Assembly (NCBI GenBank): GCA_965200095.1
Contig: OZ241350.1
Coordinates: 1,912,215-1,976,214 of the forward strand
Source of the DNA: Alphaproteobacteria bacterium
Lineage (GTDB): Bacteria; Pseudomonadota; Alphaproteobacteria; UBA7887
Direction of reading: 5' to 3'
DNA: 64,000 nt
Part shown: positions 36,587 to 59,381 of the stretch, one piece after another
Numbering within the stretch: position 1 is the first letter of the stretch
Layout: the number at the start of each line of letters is the position of its first letter
Translations under genes and position numbers: made by a program
The notes under the pieces: generated by a model
Database searches by the model: none
What the model was told of the DNA's origin: nothing
Seen by the model: only the letters and a program-made list of their open reading frames with translations

Positions 36587-38452
36587 ATGCTGCTCGACAT
36601 CCACGAACCCGGTCATGAACCGGCCCCGGCGCCCTCGCCCGCTGTCGGCATCGACCTGGGCACCACCAATTCGGTCGTCGCGACGGCGCGCAACGGGGTG
36701 TCCGAAGTGCTGCGCGACCCGCAGGGCGCCGCCCTCGTCCCGTCGGTCGTCGCCTACGGTGCCGGCGCGCCTGTCGTCGGCGCCGCGGCGCTCGACCCGG
36801 TGGACCGGGGCGCCGGCGAAGCCGGCGAAACCGTCTCCTCGATCAAGCGCCTCATGGGGCGCGGGGCGGAAGACATCGCCGCGCTGGCGGGGAGTTTGCC
36901 CTACCGGGTGCTGCCCGGCGACGGCATGGCGCGCCTTGAGGTGGGCGGGCGCGCGCTCACGCCGGTGGAGATTTCGGCCGACATCCTGCGCGCCCTGCGC
37001 GCCCGCGCCGAGACGGCGCTCGGCGAGGAGGTGACGAAGGCCGTCGTGACCGTGCCGGCCTATTTCGACGATGCGGCGCGCACCGCGACCCGCGACGCCG
37101 CGCGCCTCGCGGGGCTCGAAGCGCTGCGTCTGGTGAGCGAACCCACCGCCGCCGCGCTCGCTTACGGCCTCGACAAGGCGGCGGAGGGCCTCTACGCGGT
37201 TTTCGATCTCGGCGGCGGCACGTTCGACGTCTCGGTCCTGCGACTCGAAAAGGGCGTTTTCCAGGTGCTCGCCACAGGCGGCGATGCGGCGCTGGGGGGG
37301 GACGATTTCGACCGCGCGCTCGCCGCTCATCTGCTTGCCGCGCGCGGCGTGGCGGAGGGCGCGCTGGACGAAGCCGAGGTCAAATCCGTCCTGCTGTCCG
37401 CGCGCCGCGCCAAGGAGTCTCTCAGCGTCGGGGAGCGGGCGACGGTGGCGCTGCCGGACGGCGGCGCAGCGGAGATCGACCGCGCGACATTCGAAAGCCT
37501 GATCGCGCCGCTGGTCGAGCGCGCCATCGGCATTTGCGCCTCGGTGCTCGAGGACGCCGACCTCCCGCGCGAGGCGCTTGAGGGCGTGGTGCTCGTCGGC
37601 GGCGCGACGCGCGTTCCTCTGGTCGCCGCCCGCGTCGCGGCGCTGTTCGGGCGCGCCCCGCTCTCCGACATAGACCCCGACGAGGTCGTCGCGCGCGGCG
37701 CCGCATTGCAGGCGGAAGCGCTGACGGCGGGTTCCGATACGCTGCTGCTCGACGTAACGCCGCTTTCCCTCGGCATCGAGACGATGGGCGGGTTGTTCGA
37801 GAGGATCGTCCCGCGCAACACCCCGATACCCGCCGCCCGGGCGCAGGATTTCACGACGTATAGCGATGGCCAGACCGGAATGAGCGTCCATGTGCTGCAA
37901 GGCGAGCGCGAAACGGTCGACCTGAACCGCTCGCTGGCGCGCTTCGAACTGACGGGGATCCCGCCCATGGTCGCGGGGGCGGCGCGTATTCGCGTCACCT
38001 TCGCGGTCGACGCCGACGGCCTCCTGACCGTCGGCGCGCGGGAGGAAACGACGGGGACCGAAAGCGCCGTCGAAGTGAAGCCGTCTTACGGTCTGACCGA
38101 CGGCGAGATCGAACGGATGCTCTACGACAGCATGGAGCACGCGCGCGACGACGCGACGCGACGTCTGCTCGCCGAGTCGCGCGTTGCGGCGGAACGCATG
38201 GTCGCCGCAACCCGCGCCGCGCTCGCCGCCGACGCAAGCCTGCTCGCGGCGGGCGAGGGGCGGCGCATCGGGGCCGCCATCGACGAACTCGAACGCGCCG
38301 TCGCCGGCGACGACCGCGGCCTCATCGAAGCGCTGACGACAGCGCTGGACGACACCGCGAGACCTTTCGCACAGAAGCGCATGGACCGGTCGATCGCCGC
38401 CGCCCTCGAAGGCCGCGACATCGCGTCCGTCGACGCCAGTCTCGGAGGCTGA
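36587..38452 (+). CDS. hscA: Fe-S protein assembly chaperone HscA (Hsp70 family)
   Basis: [12 protein letters not shown] and [10 protein letters not shown] Hsp70 signatures. The start was trimmed from ORF 35999..38452 to MLLDIHEP. Confidence 0.9.
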
Positions 38453-45311: not shown

Positions 45312-45661
45312 GTCCCGTTTCCCGTCCCGCTTTCGTCTCCCCAGCATAGGGGCGGGCGGGCGGCGGCGAAAGCGCAATTCGCCGTCCGCCGTCGATAACG
45401 AAGGATACGGTTGCCCCATGCGCCGCGGGAGCTGTCCGTTTCCGGATCGCCGTCCGGCTTTCCGGTGATGCGCCGCACGGGCCAGCGCGGGGCGACACGC
45501 AAGCGCGACAGCGTCTCTCTGTGTCTCGCATGTGTCCGAACCGGGTCGGCGGGGCGTTGAACTCGCCGCGAAATTCGATTACCGGTTCCGGCGTCGGGAG
45601 ACGGGAGGGAATGCGACGATGATTATGAGCCTCGCGCCGCGCGCGTCCGGATCGTCGAAAT

Positions 45662-45689
45662 CCCCCCCCCCCCCCCCCCCCCCCCCCCC
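45662..45689. repeat. poly-C homopolymer (~28 nt) 26 nt upstream of the adhesin-A start codon
   Basis: Read directly: t + 28 c + g. Confidence 0.9.
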
Positions 45690-45715: not shown

Positions 45716-48700
45716 ATGATCCGCCGGGCCTGCGGGCTGCTGGCGCTGGCCTTCCTCGCCGCCGCGGCTCTTGCCGTCTTCCCTCGCACGGCAGAGGCGG
45801 TGTGCACCGTTAACGCCGCCACGTCGACCGAGGTAAATTTCAGAGCCTCGGCGATAACCTCCAGTTCAATCACGTTTTCGTGGAATCGGCCGTCATGCGC
45901 CAGCGGCGCCGTCTCATGGCGTGTTACCGGGGCCACCCTGACCGGCGGCGGCAACTGCTGCAGTCATGTGTATGCAGACGGTGGGACCATTTCCTCTTCG
46001 ACCGCGTCCGCGCTTGGATGGACGAAGACCGGGCTGAACGCCAATACGACCTACCACTGGCGGGTGCGTATCGACCAGCCGATCACCGAGCGATCCGACT
46101 TCTTCCCCCATAATGCCCGACTGAGCGTCACGACCAAACAGGCGTCGCCGGGGACTCCGGGCGGCGTGACGGTGACGCCGGGGGTAGGCCAGCTCGCCGT
46201 CTCCTGGACCGCCGCAACCAATGCCGGCGGCTACAAGGTGCAGTGGAAATCCGGTTCGCAAGCTTACGACGCCGCGCGTCAGGCGACAGTCGGCAGCGGA
46301 ACGAGCCACACCATTACGAGCCTGACCGCGGGGACCGTATACACCGTGCGGGTCATCGCGACGCGGACCAACGCCGACGACGGACCCGCCTCCGCAGAGC
46401 GGACCGGAACGCCCAAATACTCGCCGCCGGGGACTCCGGGCGGCGTGACAGTGACGCCGGGGGTAGGCCAGCTCGCCGTCTCCTGGACCGCCGCAACCAA
46501 TGCCGGCGGCTACAAGGTGCAGTGGAAGTCCGGCGCGCAGGCTTACGACGCCGCGCGTCAGGCGACAGTCGGCAGCGGAACGAGCCACACCATTACGAGC
46601 CTGACCGCGGGGACCGCATACACCGTGCGGGTCATCGCTACGCGGACCAACGCCGACGACGGACCCGCCTCCGCAGAGCGAACCGGAACCCCGAAGGCTG
46701 CGCCGCCGGGGACTCCGGGCGGCGTGACGGTGACGCCGGGGGTGGGCCAGCTCGCCGTCTCCTGGACCGCCGCAACCAATGCCGGCGGCTACAAGGTGCA
46801 GTGGAAATCCGGTTCGCAAGCATACGACGCCGCGCGTCAGGCGACAGTCGGGAGCGGAACGAGCCATGCTATTACCGGCCTCACCGCAGGGACCGAATAC
46901 ACCGTCCGGGTCATCGCGACGCGGAGCAATGCCGACGACGGACCCGCCTCCGCAGAGCGAACCGGAACCCCGAAGGCTGCGCCGCCGGGGACTCCGGGCG
47001 GCGTAACGGTGACGCCGGGAGTGGGCCAGCTTGCCGTCTCCTGGACCGCCGCGGCCAATGCCGACGGCTACAAGGTGCAGTGGAAATCCGGCTCGCAGAC
47101 TTACGACGCCGCGCGTCAGGCGACAGTCGGCAGCGGAACGAGCCACGCCATTACCGGCTTGAGCGCGGGGACCGAATACGCCGTGCGGGTCGTCGCGACG
47201 CGAAGCAATGCCGACGACGGACCCGCCTCCGCAGAGCGAACCGGAACGCCGAGGGCCGCGCCGTCGGGGGCGCCGGGCGGTGTGACGGTGACGCCGGGGG
47301 CGGGCCGGCTCGCCGTCTCCTGGACCGCCGTGACCGGCGCCGACGGCTACAAGGTGCAGTGGAAATCCGGCGCGCAGACTTACGATGCCGCGCGTCAGGC
47401 GACAGTCGGCGGCAGCACGAGCCACACTATCACCGGCCTCGCCGCGGGAACCGAATACACCGTGCGGGTCATCGCGACGCGAACCGACGCCGACGACGGA
47501 CCCGCCTCCGCAGAGCGAACCGGAACGCCCAAACAATCGCCGCCGGGGGCGCCGGGCGACGTAACGGTGACGCCGGAGGTGGGCCGGCTCGCCGTCTCCT
47601 GGACCGCCGCGACCGATGCCGACGGCTACAAGGTGCAGTGGAAATCCGGCTCGCAGACTTACGACGCCGCGCGTCAGGCGACGGTCGGCAGCGGAACGAG
47701 CCATGCCATTACCGGTCTGACCGCGGGGACCGAATACACCGTGCGGGTCATCGCGACGCGCAGCAACGCCGACGACGGACCCGCCTCCACAGAGCAAACC
47801 GGAACGCCGACGACAGGCAGGATCGATCTGTCGGCGCCGACTCTCGCCGTGACGGCGGGCGGCGCCGGGGAGACCTACACGGTGGTTCTGGGCGCAGCGC
47901 CGGATGGCGACGTCACCGTCGCAATAGCGAGCGACAACGGCGATGTGACGGCGACTCCCGACAGCCTCTCCTTCACGGCGTCGGACTGGAGCGCGCCGCA
48001 GACGGTGACGTTAACTGCGGCGGCGGACGATGACGGCTACGCCGATATGGCGTCGCTGACGCATACGGCGTCGGGCGGCGGTTACGACGGGGTGACGGGG
48101 ACGCTGCCCGTGGCGGTGACGGGCGACAGCAAGGTGAGGGTGGGCGGCGCGGGCGAGACGGTCTACCGGATCCGCGGTCGGACGGTGACGGTGGCGGTGA
48201 TGCCCGGCACGCCGGCGGGCATTGAGATCGACCTTGCGGACCTGCCCGAAGCGCCTTCGGGCGAGGCTCTGACGCTGACCTTCGCGCCTGTGGCGTCTCC
48301 GGCGGCGAGCGACGCTTTCGCCTTCGGGCCGCCGGAGTCGCGGACCGTTGTGGATGTGACGGTGACGGCGGGGCGCGTTTCGTCTCCGGGTCTGCGTCTG
48401 TGCCTTCCGGTTGCGGATGCGGCGCGGGATGCGGCGCGGGGTCGTCCGTTGCTGTTGCTGCGTTACGACGGCAGCGCCTGGGGCGCGGTCGCCGGGTCTG
48501 CGGCGAGCGCGGACGGGTCGCTTGTGTGCGCCGATGGCGTGTCGTCGTTTTCGCCGTTTGCGGTTGGGTATGCGGACACGGCGCCGTCGTTTGCGGCGGA
48601 TGCGGCCATCGCGGCGCTGGCGTTCACGGCGGGCGAGGCCATTGAGCCTGTGACCTTGCCTGCGGCGACGGGGGGCGACGGGACGTTCTACGAGCTGGGT

Positions 48701-50269
48701 CCGCGGCCATTGGCGCTGCCGCCGGGTCTGGATATCGACGATGCGACGCGGGTTCTTTCGGGGACGCCGACGGAGGCGTTCGCGCAGCGTCGCTACACAT
48801 GGACGGCGACGGACATCGACGGGGAGAGCGATACGCTGTCGTTCACGATGGAGGTGCTGCCGGCGCTTGCGGCGGCGCGGGAGCGTTTGCGGGCGGTGAA
48901 CGAGTCGGTTCTGCCGGAGTTGTCGCGGGCGATGTGGGGGAGCGTCATCGATGCGCTGACGGGGCGCCTTGAGAGCGCGGGTCTTTCGGTCGGCGACGGC
49001 GCGGGCGTCGCGGCGTCGGGTCTTGCGGGGGCTTCGGAGTTCCTGCGGTCGAACGATGGCGCGCCTGGGGCGGGTTCTGGTTCGTGGCGGGAGTTGCTGG
49101 CGGGCGAATCCTTCGTGCTGGGCGTGGGTTCGGAAGCGGGCGGCGGCGGCGGCGGTTCGCCGGTAATGGTCTGGGGTTCGGGGGACTGGCGCAAACTGTC
49201 GCTGGACGATGCGGTTCTGGACTGGTCCGGGGAGTTGCTCTCGGCGCATGCGGGGGTGGATGCGCGGCTTGGCGGGAGTGTTCGCGGCGGCGTTGCGGCG
49301 TCATGGTTCGAGAGTGAGATCGACTACACGGATCGCAGCGGCGAGGCGGCGGTTTCGGGCGTTCACGAGAGCCGGCTGCCGGCGGTGCATCCCTGGGCGG
49401 GGTGGTTCGGCTCGGACGGCTCGCGTCTGTGGGGGGTGCTGGGCTATGGCGAGGGCGAGGTCGAGATAGCGGATGCGGACCTTGCGGAGCGTTTCGGGGT
49501 CCAGAAGAGCGACAGCGCGTTTCTGGCGGCGGCGGCGGGGGGTTCGGTTCCGGTTGCGTCGTCCGGCGTGTTTGCGCTTGCGCTGAAGGGTTCGGGGGAG
49601 GCGACGCGCTATTCGGTGGAGGACAACGGCGCGGCGATTGCGGCGGTGTCTGTGGACACGCAGCGGTTGCGGCTGTCTGCGACGGGCAGCCGGCGCTGGG
49701 TTCTGGCGGACGGCGGGACGCTTACGCCGTCGCTGGAGGCGGGGGCGCGCTGGGACGGCGGCGACGGGGAGACGGGCGCAGGCGTGGAGTTGGGGGGCGG
49801 CGTGGAGTGGACGCTTCCGTCGCATGGCCTGGCGGTTGCGGCGCGGGGCCGGACGCTGGCGGCCCATGCGGGCGCTGCGGAGGAATGGGGCGTGTCGGGT
49901 TCGGCGCGGCTTTCGCCGCCCGGCGGGCGCGGTCTGTCTCTGGCGCTGTCGCCGCGCTGGGGGGCTTCGGACAGCGGCCTGTCGCGTCTGTGGGACGAGG
50001 GCGTTGCGGGGCGCGGGTCTCCGGTCGGCGGAAGCGACGCGGGCGCGGCGGGTCTGGAGGCGGAGTTGGGCTACGGGTTCCGCGAGGGGGCCGGTCTGCT
50101 GACGCCGTCTGCGGGGTTCGGCTACGGGGACGGCGGCGCGCGGCGCTGGCTGGTGGGAACGCGGTTCGAGCTCGGCCCGGCGCTTGCGGTCTCGGTGGCG
50201 ACCGAACGCCGCGACGGCGCCGCCGACGCCGGACACGCCCTCCGCATCGACCTGCGCATGAACTGGTAG
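45716..50269 (+). CDS. giant secreted repeat protein A (1517 aa): signal peptide, 7 FN3-like domains, Calx-beta/cadherin-like and He_PIG-like domains, C-terminal autotransporter-like beta-barrel
   Basis: Signal peptide MIRRACGLLALAFLAAAALAVFPRTAEA. FN3-like units of ~93 aa ending YTVRVIATR. Calx-like segment VTVAIASDNGDVTATPDSLSFTASDW. Helical linker LPALAAARERLRAVNESVLPEL. C-terminus LRIDLRMNW shows an alternating hydrophobic pattern and a terminal Trp. Confidence 0.8.
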   Translation: MIRRACGLLALAFLAAAALAVFPRTAEAVCTVNAATSTEVNFRASAITSSSITFSWNRPSCASGAVSWRVTGATLTGGGNCCSHVYADGGTISSSTASALGWTKTGLNANTTYHWRVRIDQPITERSDFFPHNARLSVTTKQASPGTPGGVTVTPGVGQLAVSWTAATNAGGYKVQWKSGSQAYDAARQATVGSGTSHTITSLTAGTVYTVRVIATRTNADDGPASAERTGTPKYSPPGTPGGVTVTPGVGQLAVSWTAATNAGGYKVQWKSGAQAYDAARQATVGSGTSHTITSLTAGTAYTVRVIATRTNADDGPASAERTGTPKAAPPGTPGGVTVTPGVGQLAVSWTAATNAGGYKVQWKSGSQAYDAARQATVGSGTSHAITGLTAGTEYTVRVIATRSNADDGPASAERTGTPKAAPPGTPGGVTVTPGVGQLAVSWTAAANADGYKVQWKSGSQTYDAARQATVGSGTSHAITGLSAGTEYAVRVVATRSNADDGPASAERTGTPRAAPSGAPGGVTVTPGAGRLAVSWTAVTGADGYKVQWKSGAQTYDAARQATVGGSTSHTITGLAAGTEYTVRVIATRTDADDGPASAERTGTPKQSPPGAPGDVTVTPEVGRLAVSWTAATDADGYKVQWKSGSQTYDAARQATVGSGTSHAITGLTAGTEYTVRVIATRSNADDGPASTEQTGTPTTGRIDLSAPTLAVTAGGAGETYTVVLGAAPDGDVTVAIASDNGDVTATPDSLSFTASDWSAPQTVTLTAAADDDGYADMASLTHTASGGGYDGVTGTLPVAVTGDSKVRVGGAGETVYRIRGRTVTVAVMPGTPAGIEIDLADLPEAPSGEALTLTFAPVASPAASDAFAFGPPESRTVVDVTVTAGRVSSPGLRLCLPVADAARDAARGRPLLLLRYDGSAWGAVAGSAASADGSLVCADGVSSFSPFAVGYADTAPSFAADAAIAALAFTAGEAIEPVTLPAATGGDGTFYELGPRPLALPPGLDIDDATRVLSGTPTEAFAQRRYTWTATDIDGESDTLSFTMEVLPALAAARERLRAVNESVLPELSRAMWGSVIDALTGRLESAGLSVGDGAGVAASGLAGASEFLRSNDGAPGAGSGSWRELLAGESFVLGVGSEAGGGGGGSPVMVWGSGDWRKLSLDDAVLDWSGELLSAHAGVDARLGGSVRGGVAASWFESEIDYTDRSGEAAVSGVHESRLPAVHPWAGWFGSDGSRLWGVLGYGEGEVEIADADLAERFGVQKSDSAFLAAAAGGSVPVASSGVFALALKGSGEATRYSVEDNGAAIAAVSVDTQRLRLSATGSRRWVLADGGTLTPSLEAGARWDGGDGETGAGVELGGGVEWTLPSHGLAVAARGRTLAAHAGAAEEWGVSGSARLSPPGGRGLSLALSPRWGASDSGLSRLWDEGVAGRGSPVGGSDAGAAGLEAELGYGFREGAGLLTPSAGFGYGDGGARRWLVGTRFELGPALAVSVATERRDGAADAGHALRIDLRMNW
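46141..47820 (+). repeat. six near-perfect 279-bp tandem repeats (one FN3-like domain each) inside adhesin A
   Basis: Repeat starts at about 46147, 46426, 46705, 46984, 47263 and 47542. Identity drifts only slightly between copies. Confidence 0.85.
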
Positions 50270-50344
50270 CGACCGGCGCGCGCGGCGACGGCGCGGGTGC
50301 GCGATACGACCGACGGGAAATCGAGGCGGCGCCGGGCGCGCGCC

Positions 50345-50614
50345 CTACACGACGCCGAACAGGCGCGCGGCCATCGCCAGAACGATCGCGAACATGAAGC
50401 CGAGCACCCACTTGACGGCCCACAATTCCGCCTTGACGGCGCCGATGTCACCCTTGAGTTCGGCTCTGAGTTCGGCGATGTCGCCCTTGGTGGCGACGCC
50501 CTCGCTCACCGCCTTGCGCACGGTTATGGCGATGGCCTTGGCTTGCGGCTCGGGCAGACCCGTGCGGGTCAAGGCCTCGGCCGCCTCCAGCGTGTCGAAC
50601 AACTCAGTGGACAT
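50345..50614 (-). CDS. DUF1640-like coiled-coil protein with C-terminal TM anchor, copy 1 (89 aa; two 11-mer repeats)
   Basis: MSTELFDTLEAAEALTRTGLPEPQAKAIAITVRKAV ... KGDIAELRAELKGDIGAVKAEL ... WVLGFMFAIVLAMAARLFGVV matches the DUF1640 N-terminus, 11-mer repeats and terminal TM. The start was trimmed from ORF 50345..50683. Confidence 0.6.
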   Translation of the reverse strand: MSTELFDTLEAAEALTRTGLPEPQAKAIAITVRKAVSEGVATKGDIAELRAELKGDIGAVKAELWAVKWVLGFMFAIVLAMAARLFGVV

Positions 50615-50644
50615 GCCGCGTCTTCTACGCCCGGTATCGGGGAC

Positions 50645-50673
50645 TGTCAAGCCGCCTGCGCTCACGGCGCAGG
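50645..50673 (-). promoter_or_regulatory. candidate promoter (-35 TTGACA) with an abutting inverted-repeat operator CCTGCGCTCACGGCGCAGG upstream of DUF1640 copy 1
   Basis: On the minus strand: palindrome, TTGACA, 17 nt, TAGAAG, 7 nt, ATG. There is no SD. Repeated upstream of copies 2 and 3. Confidence 0.4.
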
Positions 50674-50990
50674 GCAATCGCACTTGGGCGTCATTTTGGG
50701 TTGGGGTTTAGGGGTTTTGGTTGAGCGGATCGTGTCGAGGAGGAAGTTGTTGTCCCATCCGGCGCGCTTGAGTTTTCCTCGCATGGCGTCTTTTCCGGGT
50801 TCGATGCGCGCGACGTTCAGGGCCATGCGGCGCAGCAGTGCGAGGTTCTCCGGCCCATTCCCGGTGCGGTTGCGCTGCCGATCCTCGTTCATGGTCACGT
50901 CCAATACCCAATGCAACGAGTTCCCGATCGCCCAATGGCCGCGCACCGCGTGCCGGAAGCGCTCCGGGGAGAGTTCGGCGCCCATGATGT
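50662..50990 (-). pseudogene. ISAs1/IS4-like transposase C-terminal fragment
   Basis: HWAIGNSLHWVLDVTMNEDRQRNRTGNGPENLALLRRMALN matches the conserved DDE-transposase C-terminus. The upstream catalytic part is missing. Confidence 0.5.
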
Positions 50991-51387
50991 AGTAGCGCGT
51001 CTCGGTTGTCGTCCCGGTTCGGGTCTCGATGCGCCCGCGGCTGCCGTAGGTGTCTCGATGGCGCCGTCGGCCCGCATCCCCTGCGCCGGGCTGTCCGGGT
51101 AGAGTTTCGAGTCTCCTCTCACGGTCGCCCGTGCCCCCTGTTTCCATGATGGCGCTTGCGATGGCGACGCCGCTATCGGTCGGTCATGGAAATCGGGCGG
51201 CGGTTGCTTTCCGGCAGCGTCCGGGTTGCCGTAGCGAACGGCGTTGTCGATGCGTCTTGACATGCGGTCGAAATCGGGTTACCGGTGCGGGCCATAATTC
51301 ATGAAGGTGGGGGCGATGGATGTCGGTAATCTCTCGGCCGGAACGCGGCGGCGAACCGGACGCCGGTTTACGATGTCGCCCCTGAAT

Positions 51388-51405
51388 CCCCCCCCCCCCC
51401 CCCCC
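51388..51405. repeat. poly-C homopolymer (18 nt) inside the 5' end of the adhesin-B reading frame
   Basis: ccc + cccccccccc + ccccc, read directly. Confidence 0.9.
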
Positions 51406-51428
51406 GCGCCTTCGTCGCGGCGGCGTGG

Positions 51429-54400
51429 TTGGCTTTTCTGTTCGTCGCAGCGGCGCAGCCGGCCGTCGCGGCGGAGTGGATCCATAGCCCGTCTCCGGCG
51501 ATCCTGTATAAAAGCAGCCTGAATAACGCGCAAGTTTATTTGGCGCTGGATGGAAACTCGCCCCGTTTCAAAGTCACCAGCGATCTGAATACAAACAGAA
51601 GCACCTGGTTCGCCTTGTCGGGCGTCCCCAGCGGGGTCACTCTCTCGGTCAGCGCCGTTGTCGGTCAAACCTCGCCGCATCAGGGCGCCTTGTTGACGTT
51701 GAGCTATAGCGGCAATTTCACCAGCGACTGGGTCCTTACGATCACGGTCCCTTCGGCGGCCTTCTTCACAAGGGCGCGCCAGGTGGTCTACACGATCCCG
51801 GTGCAGACGGACAATACGAAAAGCCTGTGGACGGGGGCAGTATCGGGCCAGGCGACGGAAGCCGGGGGACAGGCGACGTTCCCGGTGCGGCTGCGGGCGG
51901 CGCCTTCGCAGGACGTAACCGTGACGGTAACGAGCCGGGATACGGGCGAGGGCTCGGTATCGCCGTCCACGCTCACCTTCAGCTCTTCGAATTGGCACAC
52001 GCCGCAGACTGTGACGGTGACCGGCGTGGACGATAACGTGGACGACGGCACTCAAAACTGGAACGTCCGCCTCGATCCGTCGAGCGCCGATACGACCTAT
52101 AACGGCCTGACGAACGTGGACGTGGCGGTAACCACCACGGACAATGACGCCCTACCGACGGCGACGCTGTCGCTGAGCCAGTCTTCGATTTCCGAGAACG
52201 GCGGTTCTGCGACAGTGACCGCGGCGCTCTCGCATCCGTCGAGTGGGGCGACGGCGCTGACGGTGGCGGCTTCGCCGGGTTCGGGGACGGATTTCACACA
52301 GACGGGAACGACGCTGAACATCGCTGCGGGGGCGACGAGCAGCACCGGAACGGTGACCATCGCAGCAACCAACAATAGCGTCGACGCGCCGGACAAGAGC
52401 GTGACGGTCTCGGCGACGGCGAGCGGGGCCAGCAACGTCGCGAACCCGTCGTCGGTGACGCTGACGCTGACGGACGACGAGGCGGCGCCGACGGCGACGC
52501 TGGCGTTGTCGAACAATTCGATTCCGGAGAACGGCGGGACATCGACGGTGAGCGCGACGCTGTCGCACGCCTCCAGCGCGTCTTCGACGATCACCGTTTC
52601 GACGGGGACGGGGTTCACCCTGGGTTCGGCGACGACGTTGAATATCGCGGCGGGAGCGACGAGCAGCAGCGGGACGGTGACGCTCACGGCGGATAACGAC
52701 AACGTGCATTCGGGAGACCGGTCGGTCACGGTGACGGGTTCGATGGCGAACACCCAGGGCGCGGGTTCCGTGACGGGGGCTTCGTTGACGATCGAGGAAG
52801 ACGAGGCGTTGCCGACGGCGACGCTGGCGTTGTCGCGTTCGAGCATCGACGAGAGCGGGGCGGACGGCGGTTCGACGGTGACCGCCGGCCTGAGCGGCGC
52901 GTCGAGCGAAGCGACGGTGCTGACGGTGTCGACGTCTCCGGGCGCCGACACGGTCGCAGGCGACTTCACGCAGTCGGGAACGGTGCTGACCATTGCGGCG
53001 GGGGAGACGTCCAGCACCGGCGCGGTGACGATCGCGGCCGTGGACAACGATGCCGACACGCCGAACAAGAGCGTGACGGTCTCGGCGACGGCGGCCGGAG
53101 GCAACGGCGTCGCGGATCCGTCCCCCCTGACGCTGACAGTGACGGACGATGAGGGGCCGCCGACGGTGACGCTGTCGCTGTCGCCGCCGTCGATCGACGA
53201 GAACGGGGGCGTGACGCGGGTGTCGGCGACGCTCTCGCGCCCGTCGGCCGTGGAGACGACGGTAACGGTGTCGGCGTCCCCGGGCGCTGACGCGGTTGCA
53301 GGCGACTTCGCCCTGAGTTCGAACAAGACGCTGACCATCGCCGCGGGAGCGACGACCGGCGCCGGAACGGTGACGATCGCGGCCGTGGACAATGATGTCG
53401 ACGCGCCGGACAAGAGCGTGACGGTTTCGGGCGCGGCGTCGAACGCTGTGGCCGAGGCTGCCGGGCAGACCGTGGCCGTGACCGGAGCGACGCTGACGGT
53501 GACGGACGACGACGAGACGGGGATGCTCATCGCGCCGTCGTCGCTCGTCGCGGAAGCGGGCGGCGCCGGGACGGAGTACACGGTCGTACTCGCCAGCGAG
53601 CCCGTCGGCGACGTGACGGTGGCGATAGCGAGCGACTCGGCGGAAGTGACGGTCAGCCCCGACAGTCTTGTCTTCACGGCGTCGGACTGGAGCGCGCCGC
53701 AGACGGTGACGTTAACCGCAGCGGCGGACGATGACGGTTACGCCGATGCGGCGTCGCTGACGCATACGGCGTCGGGCGGCGGTTACGACGGGGTGACGGG
53801 GACGCTGCCCGTGGCGGTGACGGGCGACAGCAAGGTGAGGGTGGGCGGCGCGGGCGAGACGGTTTACCGGATCCGCGGTCGGACGGTGACGGTGGCGGTG
53901 ATGCCCGGCACGCCGGCGGGCATTGAGATCGACCTTGCGGACCTGCCCGAAGCGCCTTCGGGCGAGGCTCTGACGCTGACCTTCGCGCCTGTGGCGTCTC
54001 CGGCGGCGAGCGACGCTTTCGCCTTCGGGCCGCCGGAGTCGCGGACCGTTGTGGATGTGACGGTGACGGCGGGGCGCGTTTCGTCTCCGGGTCTGCGTCT
54101 GTGCCTTCCGGTTGCGGATGCGGCGCGGGATGCGGCGCGGGGTCGTCCGTTGCTGTTGCTGCGTTACAACGGCGACGCCTGGGGCGCGGTCGCCGGGTCT
54201 GCGGCGAGCGCGGACGGGTCGCTTGTGTGCGCCGATGGCGTGTCGTCGTTTTCGCCGTTTGCGGTTGGGTATGCGGACACGGCGCCGTCGTTTGCGGCGG
54301 ATGCGGCCATCGCGGCGCTGGCGTTCACGGCGGGCGAGGCCATTGAGCCTGTGACCCTGCCTGCGGCGACGGGGGGCGACTGGACGATCCACGAGCTGGG

Positions 54401-55970
54401 TCCCCGGCCATTGGCGCTGCCGCCGGGTCTGGGTTTCGACCGTGACACGCGGGTTCTTTCGGGGACTCCGACGGAGGCGTTCGCGCAGCGTCGCTACACA
54501 TGGACGGCGACGGACATCGATGGGGAGAGCGATACGCTGTCGTTCACGATGGAGGTGCTGCCGGCGCTTGCGGCGGCGCGGGAGCGTTTGCGGGCGGTGA
54601 ACGAGTCGGTTCTGCCGGAGTTGTCGCGGGCGATGTGGGGGAGCGTCATCGATGCGCTGACGGGGCGCCTTGAGAGCGCGGGTCTTTCGGTCGGCGACGG
54701 CGCGGGCGTCGCGGCGTCGGGTCTTGCGGGGGCTTCGGAGTTCCTGCGGTCGAACGATGGCGCGCCTGGGGCGGGTTCTGGTTCGTGGCGGGAGTTGCTG
54801 GCGGGCGAATCCTTCGTGCTGGGCGTGGGTTCGGAAGCGGGCGGCGGCGGCGGCGGTTCGCCGGTAATGGTCTGGGGTTCGGGGGACTGGCGCAAACTGT
54901 CGCTGGACGATGCGGTTCTGGACTGGTCCGGGGAGTTGCTCTCGGCGCATGCGGGGGTGGATGCGCGGCTTGGCGGGAGTGTTCGCGGCGGCGTTGCGGC
55001 GTCATGGTTCGAGAGTGAGATCGACTACACGGATCGCAGCGGCGAGGCGGCGGTTTCGGGCGTTCACGAGAGCCGGCTGCCGGCGGTGCATCCCTGGGCG
55101 GGGTGGTTCGGCTCGGACGGCTCGCGTCTGTGGGGGGTGCTGGGCTATGGCGAGGGCGAGGTCGAGATAGCGGATGCGGACCTTGCGGAGCGTTTCGGGG
55201 TCCAGAAGAGCGACAGCGCGTTTCTGGCGGCGGCGGCGGGGGGTTCGGTTCCGGTTGCGTCGTCCGGCGTGTTTGCGCTTGCGCTGAAGGGTTCGGGGGA
55301 GGCGACGCGCTATTCGGTGGAGGACAACGGCGCGGCGATTGCGGCGGTGTCTGTGGACACGCAGCGGTTGCGGCTGTCTGCGACGGGCAGCCGGCGCTGG
55401 GTTCTGGCGGACGGCGGGACGCTTACGCCGTCGCTGGAGGCGGGGGCGCGCTGGGACGGCGGCGACGGGGAGACGGGCGCAGGCGTGGAGTTGGGGGGCG
55501 GCGTGGAGTGGACGCTTCCGTCGCATGGCCTGGCGGTTGCGGCGCGGGGCCGGACGCTGGCGGCCCATGCGGGCGCTGCGGAGGAATGGGGCGTGTCGGG
55601 TTCGGCGCGGCTTTCGCCGCCCGGCGGGCGCGGTCTGTCTCTGGCGCTGTCGCCGCGCTGGGGGGCTTCGGACAGCGGCCTGTCGCGTCTGTGGGACGAG
55701 GGCGTTGCGGGGCGCGGGTCTCCGGTCGGCGGAAGCGACGCGGGCGCGGCGGGTCTGGAGGCGGAGTTGGGCTACGGGTTCCGCGAGGGGGCCGGTCTGC
55801 TGACGCCGTCTGCGGGGTTCGGCTACGGGGACGGCGGCGCGCGGCGCTGGCTGGTGGGAACGCGGTTCGACCTCGGCCCGGCGCTTGCGGTCTCGGTGGC
55901 GACCGAACGCCGCGACGGCGCCGCCGACGCCGGACACGCCCTCCGCATCGACCTGCGCATGAACTGGTAG
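51429..55970 (+). CDS. giant secreted repeat protein B (about 1513 aa from TTG): 5 Calx-beta-like domains plus the shared Calx/He_PIG/linker/beta-barrel module; apparently phase-OFF
   Basis: Calx-beta-like units [25 protein letters not shown]...NIAAGATSSTGTVTIAA...DKSVTVSATA. The last ~900 aa are near-identical to protein A and end LRIDLRMNW. The in-frame ORF begins only at TTG 51429, in the middle of a signal-peptide h-region. The ATG at 51373 (MSPLN-polyP) is out of frame by one C. Confidence 0.75.
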   Translation: MAFLFVAAAQPAVAAEWIHSPSPAILYKSSLNNAQVYLALDGNSPRFKVTSDLNTNRSTWFALSGVPSGVTLSVSAVVGQTSPHQGALLTLSYSGNFTSDWVLTITVPSAAFFTRARQVVYTIPVQTDNTKSLWTGAVSGQATEAGGQATFPVRLRAAPSQDVTVTVTSRDTGEGSVSPSTLTFSSSNWHTPQTVTVTGVDDNVDDGTQNWNVRLDPSSADTTYNGLTNVDVAVTTTDNDALPTATLSLSQSSISENGGSATVTAALSHPSSGATALTVAASPGSGTDFTQTGTTLNIAAGATSSTGTVTIAATNNSVDAPDKSVTVSATASGASNVANPSSVTLTLTDDEAAPTATLALSNNSIPENGGTSTVSATLSHASSASSTITVSTGTGFTLGSATTLNIAAGATSSSGTVTLTADNDNVHSGDRSVTVTGSMANTQGAGSVTGASLTIEEDEALPTATLALSRSSIDESGADGGSTVTAGLSGASSEATVLTVSTSPGADTVAGDFTQSGTVLTIAAGETSSTGAVTIAAVDNDADTPNKSVTVSATAAGGNGVADPSPLTLTVTDDEGPPTVTLSLSPPSIDENGGVTRVSATLSRPSAVETTVTVSASPGADAVAGDFALSSNKTLTIAAGATTGAGTVTIAAVDNDVDAPDKSVTVSGAASNAVAEAAGQTVAVTGATLTVTDDDETGMLIAPSSLVAEAGGAGTEYTVVLASEPVGDVTVAIASDSAEVTVSPDSLVFTASDWSAPQTVTLTAAADDDGYADAASLTHTASGGGYDGVTGTLPVAVTGDSKVRVGGAGETVYRIRGRTVTVAVMPGTPAGIEIDLADLPEAPSGEALTLTFAPVASPAASDAFAFGPPESRTVVDVTVTAGRVSSPGLRLCLPVADAARDAARGRPLLLLRYNGDAWGAVAGSAASADGSLVCADGVSSFSPFAVGYADTAPSFAADAAIAALAFTAGEAIEPVTLPAATGGDWTIHELGPRPLALPPGLGFDRDTRVLSGTPTEAFAQRRYTWTATDIDGESDTLSFTMEVLPALAAARERLRAVNESVLPELSRAMWGSVIDALTGRLESAGLSVGDGAGVAASGLAGASEFLRSNDGAPGAGSGSWRELLAGESFVLGVGSEAGGGGGGSPVMVWGSGDWRKLSLDDAVLDWSGELLSAHAGVDARLGGSVRGGVAASWFESEIDYTDRSGEAAVSGVHESRLPAVHPWAGWFGSDGSRLWGVLGYGEGEVEIADADLAERFGVQKSDSAFLAAAAGGSVPVASSGVFALALKGSGEATRYSVEDNGAAIAAVSVDTQRLRLSATGSRRWVLADGGTLTPSLEAGARWDGGDGETGAGVELGGGVEWTLPSHGLAVAARGRTLAAHAGAAEEWGVSGSARLSPPGGRGLSLALSPRWGASDSGLSRLWDEGVAGRGSPVGGSDAGAAGLEAELGYGFREGAGLLTPSAGFGYGDGGARRWLVGTRFDLGPALAVSVATERRDGAADAGHALRIDLRMNW

Positions 55971-56390
55971 CGGCCGACCCGCAAGGCGGGTGTGCGATAC
56001 GACCGACGGGAAATCGATGCGGCGCCGGGCGCGCGCCCTACACGACGCCGAACAGGCGCGCGGCCATCGCCAGAACGATCGCGAACATGAAGCCGAGCAC
56101 CCACTTGACGGCCCACAATTCCGCCTTGACGGCGCCGATGTCACCCTTGAGTTCGGCCCTGAGTTCGGCGATGTCGCCCTTGAGTTCGGCTCTGAGTTCG
56201 CTGATGTCGCCCTTGGTGGCGACGCCCTCGCTCACCGCCTTGCGCACGGTTATGGCGATGGCCTTGGCTTGCGGCTCGGGCAGACCCGTGCGGGTCAAGG
56301 CCTCGGCCGCCTCCAGCGTGTCGAACAACTCAGTGGACATGCCGCGTCTTCTACGCCCGGTATCGGGGACTGTCAAGCCGCCAGCAATTC
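53670..56390. repeat. segmental duplication copy 2
   Basis: See 47970-50690. Confidence 0.85.
56038..56340 (-). CDS. DUF1640-like protein, copy 2 (100 aa; three 11-mer repeats)
   Basis: Same N- and C-termini as copy 1. Has KGDISELRAELKGDIAELRAELKGDIGAVKAEL. Confidence 0.6.
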   Translation of the reverse strand: MSTELFDTLEAAEALTRTGLPEPQAKAIAITVRKAVSEGVATKGDISELRAELKGDIAELRAELKGDIGAVKAELWAVKWVLGFMFAIVLAMAARLFGVV

Positions 56391-57388: not shown

Positions 57389-58207
57389 ATGACGACGCGC
57401 GCGCGCCGGCCGGCCGCCGGAATCCTTTGTCTGGCGGCGTTTAGCGCAGTTTCCGTCCACCACGCCGCGGCGGTCGAGCTGCGTCCGCACCGCGCCCTTT
57501 ACGACCTCGGCCTCGCGGCCGCCCGCGACGGGTCGTCGATCACGGCGTTGCGCGGCGAAATGGCGCTCGAATGGGCCGACGCCTGCGAAGGCTGGACAGT
57601 GTCGCAGAATATCCGCATGGACATCGCGAACCGCAGCGGCGCGTCCTTCCAGAACGTCATCTCCTTTTCGAGCTACGAGACCAAATCGGGCGACCGCTTT
57701 CGCTTCAGCATGAAGTGGGGCGCGGCGGGAGACCGCGTCGAGGAATATGTCGGATACGCCGAACCCGGACGCGCGGTTTTCACCGTGCCCGACGGCGAGT
57801 CGATGCCCCTCCCCGAGGGGACGATGTTCCCCACCGATCACATGTTTCTCCTCGTCGATGCGGCGGCGGCCGGCAGGTCGCGCCTGACGCGGACGGTGTT
57901 CGGCGGCACCGGCCCGGACAGCCTGAACGAGGTCACCGCGTTCATCGGCGCCGAGGTCCCCTCCGGAACGCCGCTCGCGACGCGCGGCGACGAGGGCGCG
58001 GTATTGCGCGAGGTTGCGGAACTGCGTTCCTGGCCGGTGTCGCTGGCTTATTTCCCGTTCGAATCGAACGCGCCGGAGCCGGATTTCGAAGCGATCTTCC
58101 GCCTTGTCGAAAACGGCGTTGCGGCGTCGGTAATCCTCGACTATGGCGAGTTCGCCATGAATGCGGAGCTCACGGAGATCGAGTTCTTCCCGCCTCCGGC
58201 GTGCTGA
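57389..58207 (+). CDS. periplasmic protein, possibly DUF1849/EipB-like (272 aa)
   Basis: Signal peptide MTTRARRPAAGILCLAAFSAVSVHHAAA. Assigned by recalled similarity to alphaproteobacterial envelope-integrity proteins. Confidence 0.4.
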   Translation: MTTRARRPAAGILCLAAFSAVSVHHAAAVELRPHRALYDLGLAAARDGSSITALRGEMALEWADACEGWTVSQNIRMDIANRSGASFQNVISFSSYETKSGDRFRFSMKWGAAGDRVEEYVGYAEPGRAVFTVPDGESMPLPEGTMFPTDHMFLLVDAAAAGRSRLTRTVFGGTGPDSLNEVTAFIGAEVPSGTPLATRGDEGAVLREVAELRSWPVSLAYFPFESNAPEPDFEAIFRLVENGVAASVILDYGEFAMNAELTEIEFFPPPAC

Positions 58208-59381
58208 ACGCAGCGTCCGGAGTTCCATCGAGCATGTCCGCCGGCTCGGCTTCGCCTGCGGGGCTGAGTTTCTGAACGCCGACGCCCAGCAGGCGGTAGC
58301 GCGTTCCGTCCGCCTCCCTCCGCAGCAACCGGCGGCCGGCGGCGGCGATGACCTCGGCGCGCCGGGTCGCCGCCGACAGCGTCGCCGAGCGCGTCCGCAG
58401 GCGGAAATCCCCCGTCTTGAGCTTGATGACCACGCATTGCCCCGCCAGACCGCCGCGCGCCAGACGCCGGGCGACGCGCCCGCAAAGCCCGGCCAGGACC
58501 GTCTCCAGGACGGCCGCATCGCCGGTATCGCTGTCGAAAGTGGTCTCGCAAGAGACGCTTTTCGTCTCGCCGCGCGGCTCCACCCGTCGGTCGTCCTCAC
58601 CCGCCGCGTAAGCGGCGAGCTGCCGCCCGATGCTCCCGTAGCGCCGCGCCAGTTCGTCCGCGCTCCGTCCCTGGAGCTGGGCGACGACGCCGATGCCGTC
58701 GCGTTGCAGGCGGCGGGCGAGGGACGGGCCGACGCCCCATAGTTTGCGCACCGGCAGGGGGGCGAGAAAATCGCGCGCCCCGGCGCGACCGATGACCGAG
58801 AACCCCCGCGGCTTGTCGATGTCCGATGCGAGTTTGGCCAGCAACTTGTTGTAACTCAGCCCGATCGACACGGTGATCCCCAGCTCGTTTTCGACGCGGC
58901 GGGAGAATTCGTCGAGGCGTTCGGCGGCGCCGCCCGTGGCGGCGAAGTCGAGATAGGCCTCATCGATGGAGACCGGCTGCACCTGCGCCCCGACGCTGCG
59001 CATGAGGGCGCGGACCTCGGCCCCGACGGCGCGGTATTTCGACATGTCGGGCGGCAGCACGATGGCGTCCGGGCAGGCGGCGAGCGCCCTGAACATCGGC
59101 ATCGCCGAACCGACGCCGTAGAGGCGGGCCACGTAACACGCGGTGCTGACGACGCCGCGGCGCCCGCCGCCGACGATCACCGGCTTGTCCCGCAGTTCGG
59201 GCCTGTCGCGTTTCTCGACCGCCGCATAAAACGCATCGCAATCGACGTGCGCCACTTCGAGCGACGCGAGTTCGGCGTGAGCGACGACGCGCGGGCTGCC
59301 GCAGTTCCCGCACCGGCCGGCCGGCGCATCGGCGCCGAAAGCCCCGCAATCGCGGCACAACCGGTCCGTCGCGCCCGTCAT
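58170..59381 (-). CDS. dinB: DNA polymerase IV (Y-family) with N-terminal zinc-ribbon extension
   Basis: VDCDAFYAAVEKRDRPELRDKPVIVGG and SIDEAYLD catalytic motifs. N-terminal CRDCG...CGNCG. Confidence 0.85.
   Translation of the reverse strand: MTGATDRLCRDCGAFGADAPAGRCGNCGSPRVVAHAELASLEVAHVDCDAFYAAVEKRDRPELRDKPVIVGGGRRGVVSTACYVARLYGVGSAMPMFRALAACPDAIVLPPDMSKYRAVGAEVRALMRSVGAQVQPVSIDEAYLDFAATGGAAERLDEFSRRVENELGITVSIGLSYNKLLAKLASDIDKPRGFSVIGRAGARDFLAPLPVRKLWGVGPSLARRLQRDGIGVVAQLQGRSADELARRYGSIGRQLAAYAAGEDDRRVEPRGETKSVSCETTFDSDTGDAAVLETVLAGLCGRVARRLARGGLAGQCVVIKLKTGDFRLRTRSATLSAATRRAEVIAAAGRRLLRREADGTRYRLLGVGVQKLSPAGEAEPADMLDGTPDAAFSTPEAGRTRSP

Follow-up and report, generated by a model that had tools for sequence, protein, structure and literature searches.

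A poly-C tract in the signal-peptide coding region of an alphaproteobacterial autotransporter gene as a probable switch for translational phase variation

Results

Gene B encodes a predicted type Va autotransporter

We analysed a stretch of 64,000 nucleotides (hereafter the window) from an Alphaproteobacteria bacterium of the lineage UBA7887 (contig OZ241350.1, assembly GCA_965200095.1), which contains two paralogous genes for large secreted proteins, named here A and B, and focused on a run of 18 cytosines (C18) at the 5′ end of gene B. The positions of all features are listed in Table 1. Gene B extends over 4.5 kb to the stop codon at 55968..55970 and encodes 1,513 residues, and not the 1.5-kb exported protein described in an earlier examination of the letters alone (the sequence-only reading). 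Its G+C content at third codon positions (GC3) is 0.84, a typical coding value in the window. The last 356 residues matched the autotransporter beta-domain PF03797 with 30.3 bits (gathering cut-off 26, E = 4.5e-7), a domain also found in the homologues P0123, P0126 and P0129, and the protein ends in an aromatic residue (...RMNW). A large passenger, composed of Calx-beta/LapA repeats in B and of FN3 repeats in A, lies between the signal peptide and the translocator. By these features the gene B product is classed as a classical (type Va) autotransporter. A PDB sequence search with the translocator returned nothing significant.

Table 1. Features of the window and poly-C tracts at the 5′ ends of related adhesin genes (ORF, open reading frame; SD, Shine–Dalgarno sequence; IS, insertion sequence)
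Feature	Position	Strand	Description or basis
C18 homopolymer, proposed slipped-strand switch	51388..51405	+	Tract rebuilding, run-length count
Leader ORF of gene B, present frame	51304..51522	+	SD and ATG align with those of the gene A leader
Promoter-like element of gene B	51257..51285	+	TTGACA (51257..51262), 17-nt spacer, TACCGG (51280..51285); read from sequence
Main ORF of gene B, listed from TTG 51429	51429..55970	+	Predicted type Va autotransporter, Calx-beta/LapA-repeat passenger
Post-tract part of signal peptide, main frame	51405..51470	+	RA-FVAAAWLAFLFVAAA-QPAVA; alignment to the signal peptides of P0012 and P0057
C-terminal translocator of gene B (autotransporter beta-domain)	54900..55970	+	PF03797; end ...RIDLRMNW
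Segment of B duplicated from or converted with A (47832..50659)	53533..56385	+	96% identical
Gene A leader	45557..45689	+	TTGAAC-17-TACCGG (45557..45585), SD GGGAGGG (45604..45610), ATG 45619, C28 (45662..45689) followed by GCGCC
Gene A, paralogous autotransporter	45716..50269	+	1,517 residues, FN3-repeat passenger
IS transposase remnant (DDE_Tnp_1) between A and B	50662..51147	-	
DinB/Pol IV-family (IMS) gene	58170..59381	-	2 kb 3′ of B; same position in L136
Intergenic C9	57260..57268		5′ of an EipB-like gene; C4 at the orthologous L136 site
L001			C17; in frame (GTG start)
L002			C30; in frame
L003			C14 + C27; no upstream ATG leads into the tract in an open frame; own ATG 14 nt 3′ of it
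L003, next gene (L003b)			C20; in frame
L124			C18; out of frame
L125			C13; out of frame
L126			C20; in frame
L127			C17; in-frame fusion would take one more C
L136			C12; off by one
L137			C17; tract upstream of SD and ATG

The C18 tract separates an upstream start from the main reading frame

The window has a G+C content of 69%, and its run-length distribution ends at C9 and G8 (the longest G run, at 37294..37301), the exceptions being C18 and the C28 tract of gene A; C18 is therefore not an effect of composition or chance. As the sequence-only reading had it, the tract lies inside the signal-peptide coding region, with the start codon and n-region on one side and the hydrophobic core on the other; that reading described C18 correctly, while making no link to the C28 at the same position before paralogue A. 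The upstream ATGs at 51301, 51316 and 51373 share one frame, which passes through the tract and ends at TGA 51520..51522, and from ATG 51373 this frame gives MSPLN, six prolines and APSSRRRG, exactly as had been described. The earlier choice of ATG 51373 as the start was right as to the frame, to which 51301 also belongs, but ATG 51316 appears the more likely start codon of gene B, since an SD-like AAGGTG (51304..51309) lies 6 nt 5′ of it, while ATG 51373 has no SD. The main frame is open from 51330, bounded on its 5′ side by TAA 51327..51329, and between this stop and TTG 51429 it contains no ATG, GTG or TTG, in agreement with the earlier claim that no start codon precedes TTG 51429. The tract as assembled is read in the main frame as Ser, five Pro and Arg, and not as the six prolines previously assigned to it. 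When the tract was rebuilt from C14 to C22, only C16, C19 and C22 put the upstream ATGs in frame with the 1,513 codons of the main frame, the same three lengths that had been proposed, while C18 yielded an out-of-frame peptide of 68 residues from ATG 51316 or 73 residues from ATG 51301.

The N-terminus reconstructed with C19 presented an Arg-rich n-region, the hydrophobic core AFVAAAWLAFLFVAAA and the cleavage site AVA/AE, as judged by eye and by comparison with homologous signal peptides; cleavage is predicted between AVA and AEW (−3/−1 rule, by eye). An extended signal peptide of the ESPR type was considered and rejected, as the reconstructed N-termini of A and B gave no Pfam match to ESPR (PF13018) at E values up to 10; the extension consists here of a variable leader peptide and poly-proline. 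Gene B aligned with its nearest N-terminal homologues, P0012 (locus L003) and P0057 (locus L137), only from the hydrophobic core onward, and it lacks the 35–47 nt that hold the SD, ATG and n-region in these two genes, so that in B the tract abuts the signal-peptide core. Locus L136 shares this layout, with no ATG of its own after the tract, indicating that the arrangement in B is not a one-off accident.

The sole start codon in the main frame after the tract is TTG 51429, which lies within the hydrophobic core and has no SD ahead of it, and a product starting there, M-AFLFVAAAQPAVA, would lack a charged n-region and have a shortened core, which makes its export unlikely. This bears on the idea that C18 does not prevent synthesis of the protein, whether through initiation at TTG 51429, through −1 slippage of ribosomes on CCC codons as they stall on poly-proline, or through slippage of RNA polymerase on the C run, in which case the non-expressing (OFF) state would be leaky or absent. 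A homopolymer lets tRNA-Pro or the RNA–DNA hybrid re-pair in any register, and recoding at A/T runs is established (PMC1088944, PMC5009743), from which we extrapolate to the present tract. However, transcriptional slippage is documented mainly for A/T runs, and together with the poor prospects of the TTG product this makes expression at C18 highly improbable.

Poly-C tracts of different lengths precede related adhesin genes

Protein searches revealed no close copy of A or B and many homologues in metagenome assemblies, and we analysed the DNA around nine of these (L001, L002, L003, L124–L127, L136 and L137, hereafter the related loci). In the 190 kb formed by the window and the related loci, 13 of the 14 C or G runs of at least 10 nt were sense-strand poly-C at the 5′ ends of adhesin genes. 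The strand preference of the adhesin tracts was complete, with poly-C on the sense strand in 13 of 13 and poly-G in none; the remaining run was a G12 at L126:13664..13675, located in the gap between the end of the adhesin gene and yqeY in a 3.39-Mb circular genome. More distant relatives (about 35% identity; eight loci, 85 kb), collected in a JGI metagenome scan with the translocator alignment and serving as a negative control rather than for tract statistics, contained no run of 8 nt or longer. A scan of a genome collection for C16 followed by GCGCC was uninformative, the matches listed being mostly contig-end or low-complexity artefacts and unrelated drafts (Streptomyces, nanopore metagenome-assembled genomes and others).

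The sequence-only reading had proposed to compare tract lengths across related genomes, and the lengths do differ at orthologous positions. L136 is the syntenic locus, with flanks 93% and 91% identical to those of the window, and it retains the gene A leader at 76–80% identity with a tract of C12 vs C28. L124 and L125 carry gene A orthologues (P0127 and P0148) that are 85–98% identical after the tract, so the same gene A body follows C28 in the window, C18 in L124 and C13 in L125. Repeat number therefore differs at orthologous sites for the module of gene A, and for gene B by extension only, as no orthologue of its own site was found among the related loci. Within one genome, the paralogues L126 and L127, whose flanks are 82–85% identical, carry an in-frame C20 and a C17 that is off by one, respectively.

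Four loci are in frame through the tract from an upstream start (L002 with C30, L126 and L003b with C20, and L001 with C17), and in-frame homologues, among them P0052, P0065, P0165 and P0166, were called as a short peptide followed by poly-proline and then a signal peptide. The tally of in-frame and out-of-frame loci was not used as statistics because it is biased, three of the in-frame loci having been picked for their poly-proline N-termini. At least six paralogous autotransporters are encoded in one 3.4-Mb genome (proteins P0153–P0171), and their called N-termini begin at three points (MAFT-polyPro-..., MTGRRRF... and MRAARLC...), as would be expected of gene callers working around out-of-frame tracts.

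Slipped-strand phase variation is the favoured explanation

From this arrangement, C18 is likely to be the switch of a contingency locus, acting by translational phase variation through slipped-strand replication slippage. Transcription would start at the TTGACA-17-TACCGG element about 100 nt 5′ of the tract, and ribosomes would start at the SD-preceded ATG 51316, producing a short positively charged peptide followed by the poly-proline encoded by the tract. With C19 (or C16 or C22), reading would continue into RAFVAAAWLAFLFVAAAQPAVA, cleaved before AEW, to generate a long Sec signal peptide and a 1,500-residue autotransporter adhesin (ON). With C18, ribosomes would leave the frame and terminate at 51520, and no exportable protein would be made (OFF), because 3′ of the tract gene B offers neither a start codon nor an SD or n-region of its own. 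Slippage would alter the tract length reversibly and at high frequency, resulting in ON and OFF cells within one clone. The sequence-only reading had named this architecture as that of phase variation, and its elements are borne out by the upstream start, the hypermutable tract, the core in another frame, the in-frame homologues and the autotransporter class of the product. Since paralogue A (C28) and homologous adhesin genes carry the same module, related organisms probably vary a set of surface adhesins independently.

The promoter-like element of gene B overlaps the box TTACCGGTGCGGGC (51279..51292). The box TTACCGGTNCNGGC occurred only twice in the window, in the leaders of A and B, against 0.27 occurrences expected by chance. 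The arrangement TTGA(A/C)(C/A)-17-TACCGG is also present 5′ of gene A, and TTGACA-like boxes also lie 5′ of the tracts in L001, L124, L125 and L137. We infer from this conservation that the TTGACA-17-TACCGG element may serve as the promoter of gene B. A terminator consensus scan gave a single terminator-like match (51414..51429), inside the signal-peptide coding region and at chance level.

Several observations weigh against slipped-strand phase variation as set out above. A sigma-70 consensus scan gave no promoter match in support of the element, which leaves the conserved box as the basis of the promoter assignment. The phases across the loci are about evenly spread, which fits stochastic switching and equally an absence of selection on the frame. 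In many paralogues (A, L124, L125, L127, L003 and L137) a separate ATG follows the tract, and the family as a whole therefore cannot be fully explained by a simple ON/OFF frame switch. When A, B and the neighbouring aminotransferase were looked up as exact proteins, none had a record elsewhere with which a same-strain tract length could be compared. Finally, a homopolymer of 18 nt cannot be read from an assembly with single-base certainty.

This last point leaves an appreciable, though minor, probability that the switch is real and the OFF call an artefact, the true or majority length being C19 or a mixture, with one C dropped in the consensus and gene B expressed. Homopolymers this long are error-prone on every sequencing platform. 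In Bifidobacterium breve, the RefSeq G11 allele represented about 37% of molecules vs 60% for G12 (PMC9187656), and in the study of Bordetella bapC tracts longer than 16 nt were beyond reliable measurement by the assay used (PMC1891110). Several independent assemblies are each off by one (those of B, L136, L124 and L127), as would result from systematic miscalls. Nothing in the sequence argues against this account, but the related assemblies include in-frame tracts of comparable or larger size (C17, C20, C20 and C30), which speaks against a uniform undercall. The statement of the sequence-only reading that the locus is OFF by exactly one cytosine is thus correct for the assembled sequence but may not hold for the organism, as calls of an 18-nt homopolymer cannot be trusted to give the exact length.

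Post-tract start codons in paralogues and control at the level of the leader

The start codons found after the tract in several paralogues raise a different possibility, in which the tract acts as a 'volume control' at the level of the leader or of transcription and not as a switch that fuses frames. Such control could take the form of promoter or activator spacing, as in Bordetella fim and Neisseria opc/porA, of coupling through the leader stop vs occlusion, or of SD sequestration. An own ATG lies 9–29 nt after the tract in 7 of the 12 tract-bearing loci, L137 has a strong SD (GAGGGAGGGAGGGG) between tract and ATG, and in L127 and L137 the TGA of the leader ORF overlaps the main ATG (ATGA). 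The GCGCC that follows the tract is kept irrespective of the reading frame, and some minimum-energy folds pair the SD with poly-C. Gene A, in contrast to B, is equipped with a separate ATG and signal peptide 26 nt 3′ of the tract; its leader ORF is out of frame with the gene and would be joined to it by C24, C27 or C30. A TGA in the third frame also overlaps the own ATG of gene A (ATGA).

These features are offset by others. In gene B the tract is followed by no ATG, SD or n-region, and for B the frame must therefore matter. The TTGACA-like box lies about 100–125 nt 5′ of the tract in A and B (about 110–125 nt in B), with SD and ATG in between. In consensus scans no pair of −35/−10-like hexamers brackets the tract, and C18 does not appear to be a promoter-spacer homopolymer switch of the Bordetella fim or Neisseria opc/porA type. 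The folds of the leader RNAs were no more stable than those of shuffled sequences (z from +0.1 to +2.3), on which ground sequestration of the SD by leader RNA structure was also discarded. The ATGA overlaps may be due to chance, since start codons are in any case often followed by A (position +4). Volume control is hence unlikely as the main role of C18. In the paralogues with their own ATG, the tract may tune expression instead of gating it, by fusion of the two frames, through a leader stop overlapping the ATG (L127 and L137) or through read-past occlusion (A, L124 and L125), although these options are speculative.

Gene B shares its translocator with paralogue A

Paralogue A is located 5.7 kb upstream of B. 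The two genes have in common a segment of 2.86 kb with 96% identity, in which the last ~480 codons differ at one codon, indicating a recent gene conversion or duplication of the translocator halves, while the passenger halves are unrelated. Since the IS transposase remnant lies between A and B, and the syntenic L136 locus carries one autotransporter gene and no IS element, the arrangement of A and B probably arose by an IS-associated insertion or duplication.

This history allows for gene B being a dead or dying duplicate, in which an IS-linked duplication or a recombination at the tract removed the start and the n-region and left C18 as a relic. The transposase remnant is directly upstream of gene B, L136 has one gene where the window has two, and B lacks the start-codon segment of its closest N-terminal homologues. 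Against decay, the 4.5-kb frame is fully open with a coding-like GC3, one added C is enough to place a textbook signal peptide behind an ATG that has an SD, and L136 has the same layout without an own ATG at the ancestral site. The translocator half is nearly identical to that of A, but gene conversion could do likewise to a pseudogene. A comparison of synonymous and nonsynonymous differences between A and B was uninformative on pseudogenization, because the shared half has been homogenized by recent conversion. On balance, decay of gene B is very unlikely.

The chromosomal neighbourhood comprises FemAB-like, aminotransferase and YjgF genes upstream and the DinB-like gene downstream. Error-prone polymerases can affect slippage, and the proximity of a DinB/Pol IV-family gene to B is probably a coincidence. 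The intergenic C9 near the EipB-like gene is another C run whose length varies, as seen at its orthologous L136 site. The host has a prolyl-tRNA synthetase (ProRS) of the short type, and its nearest named relatives, Arenibaculum and Caenispirillum, show about 70% ProRS identity. A ProRS with 96% identity (P0241) is present in roughly 45 metagenome samples. A literature search on the habitat and the sample identifiers gave no result.

Homology breakpoints coincide with the tract

Homology breakpoints coincided with the tract in three independent comparisons of 110 nt on each side (sites at window position 45662, L136:3960, L124:5954 and L125:5959). Gene A compared with L136 gave z = 23 upstream and z = 2.3 downstream of the tract, gene A compared with L124 gave z = 2.3 and z = 24, and L124 compared with L125 gave z = 0.8 and z = 25 (98% identity), respectively. 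As observed for L124, the homology between A and L125 was confined to the downstream side. L124 and L125 are in different genomic neighbourhoods, and the homology between them begins exactly at the tract and continues for 1.3 kb at 89% before falling to about 70%, the pattern of mosaic genes. The leader module and the gene module thus assort independently between loci. The motif GCGC(C/G) follows 8 of 13 tracts and is translated as Pro-Ala-Pro in some genes and as Pro-Arg-Ala in others; being read in different frames, it is conserved as DNA and not as protein. We tentatively propose, as a possibility short of probable, that the tract and its 3′ GCGCC form a portable recombination junction, with the conserved translocator half, homogenized between A and B, as the other arm, through which passenger cassettes move between expression sites, each of which may have its own promoter and leader peptide.

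Discussion

Most documented contingency loci belong to pathogens and commensals adapted to a host, such as Neisseria, Haemophilus, Campylobacter, Helicobacter, Bordetella and Bifidobacterium. In the opa family of Neisseria, CTCTT repeats lie in the signal-peptide coding region of several paralogous outer-membrane adhesins, which switch independently to give combinatorial surface variation and also recombine with each other. The opa genes differ from gene B in having a pentamer repeat and in encoding small beta-barrels rather than autotransporters.

Among the systems with homopolymers, one close in layout to gene B is bapC of Bordetella, likewise an autotransporter gene of a high-GC proteobacterium, which has 5′ coding tracts of C14 and C35 in addition to a G10–11 tract that varies within single colonies (PMC1891110). 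Its annotated allele is one base out of frame, and the length varies between strains and within colonies (PMC1891110). It differs from gene B in coming from a pathogen among the Betaproteobacteria, in carrying two tracts, one of C and one of G, and in having an unrelated passenger; neither a conserved leader module nor a family of paralogues with the same tract has been described for it, and the two are likened here by layout.

The nalP and mspA genes of Neisseria meningitidis also encode type Va autotransporters with poly-C within the coding sequence; their tracts of 6–15 nt are ON at every third length, differ in length between isolates and have had their ON and OFF states confirmed by immunoblot (PMC3723659). 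The tracts are shorter than in gene B, the passengers are serine proteases and not Calx-beta/FN3 adhesins, and only in gene B is the tract placed between the start codon and n-region on one side and the signal-peptide core on the other.

In the sortase-dependent pilus loci of B. breve (bbr_0113 and bbr_1889), an ORF with a Sec signal and an ORF for the mature pilin, the second without a start of its own, are joined across a G-tract, and the G11 in the database is a minority allele (PMC9187656). As in gene B, separate frames are joined across a G/C homopolymer in a high-GC non-pathogen, although B. breve is Gram-positive, the product is a pilin, and the tracts are of 10–12 nt with G on the sense strand. 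The fim2, fim3 and fimX genes of Bordetella and opc and porA of Neisseria have promoter tracts, with poly-C up to C19–C22 in Bordetella bronchiseptica fim, the length of which controls expression (PMC1891110). They resemble gene B in the long poly-C upstream of surface-protein genes, but there the tract is part of the promoter and works through transcription, whereas the tract of B is 3′ of SD and ATG, inside the only possible frame.

A mechanism of this kind is therefore already known, and what is notable here is the lineage, the tract lengths and the family-wide modularity. The same logic would operate here in an uncultured alphaproteobacterial lineage, with unusually long tracts (C12–C30) and a module that recurs across large autotransporter adhesins. 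For genome annotation, the finding implies that gene callers truncate or mis-start these genes, placing N-termini inside signal peptides or at differing methionines, so that annotations are systematically mis-started, and that ON and OFF states read from assemblies of long homopolymers are unreliable.

If the coincidence of breakpoints with the tract is confirmed, it would add a role in recombination to homopolymer tracts, and if the tract does act as a junction, homopolymer phase variation and cassette shuffling would be combined throughout an adhesin family of many genes in this alphaproteobacterial lineage, which is uncultured and probably non-pathogenic. If the tracts do switch their genes, these bacteria would vary their surface stochastically, which would imply strong fluctuating selection from phages, grazers or a host.

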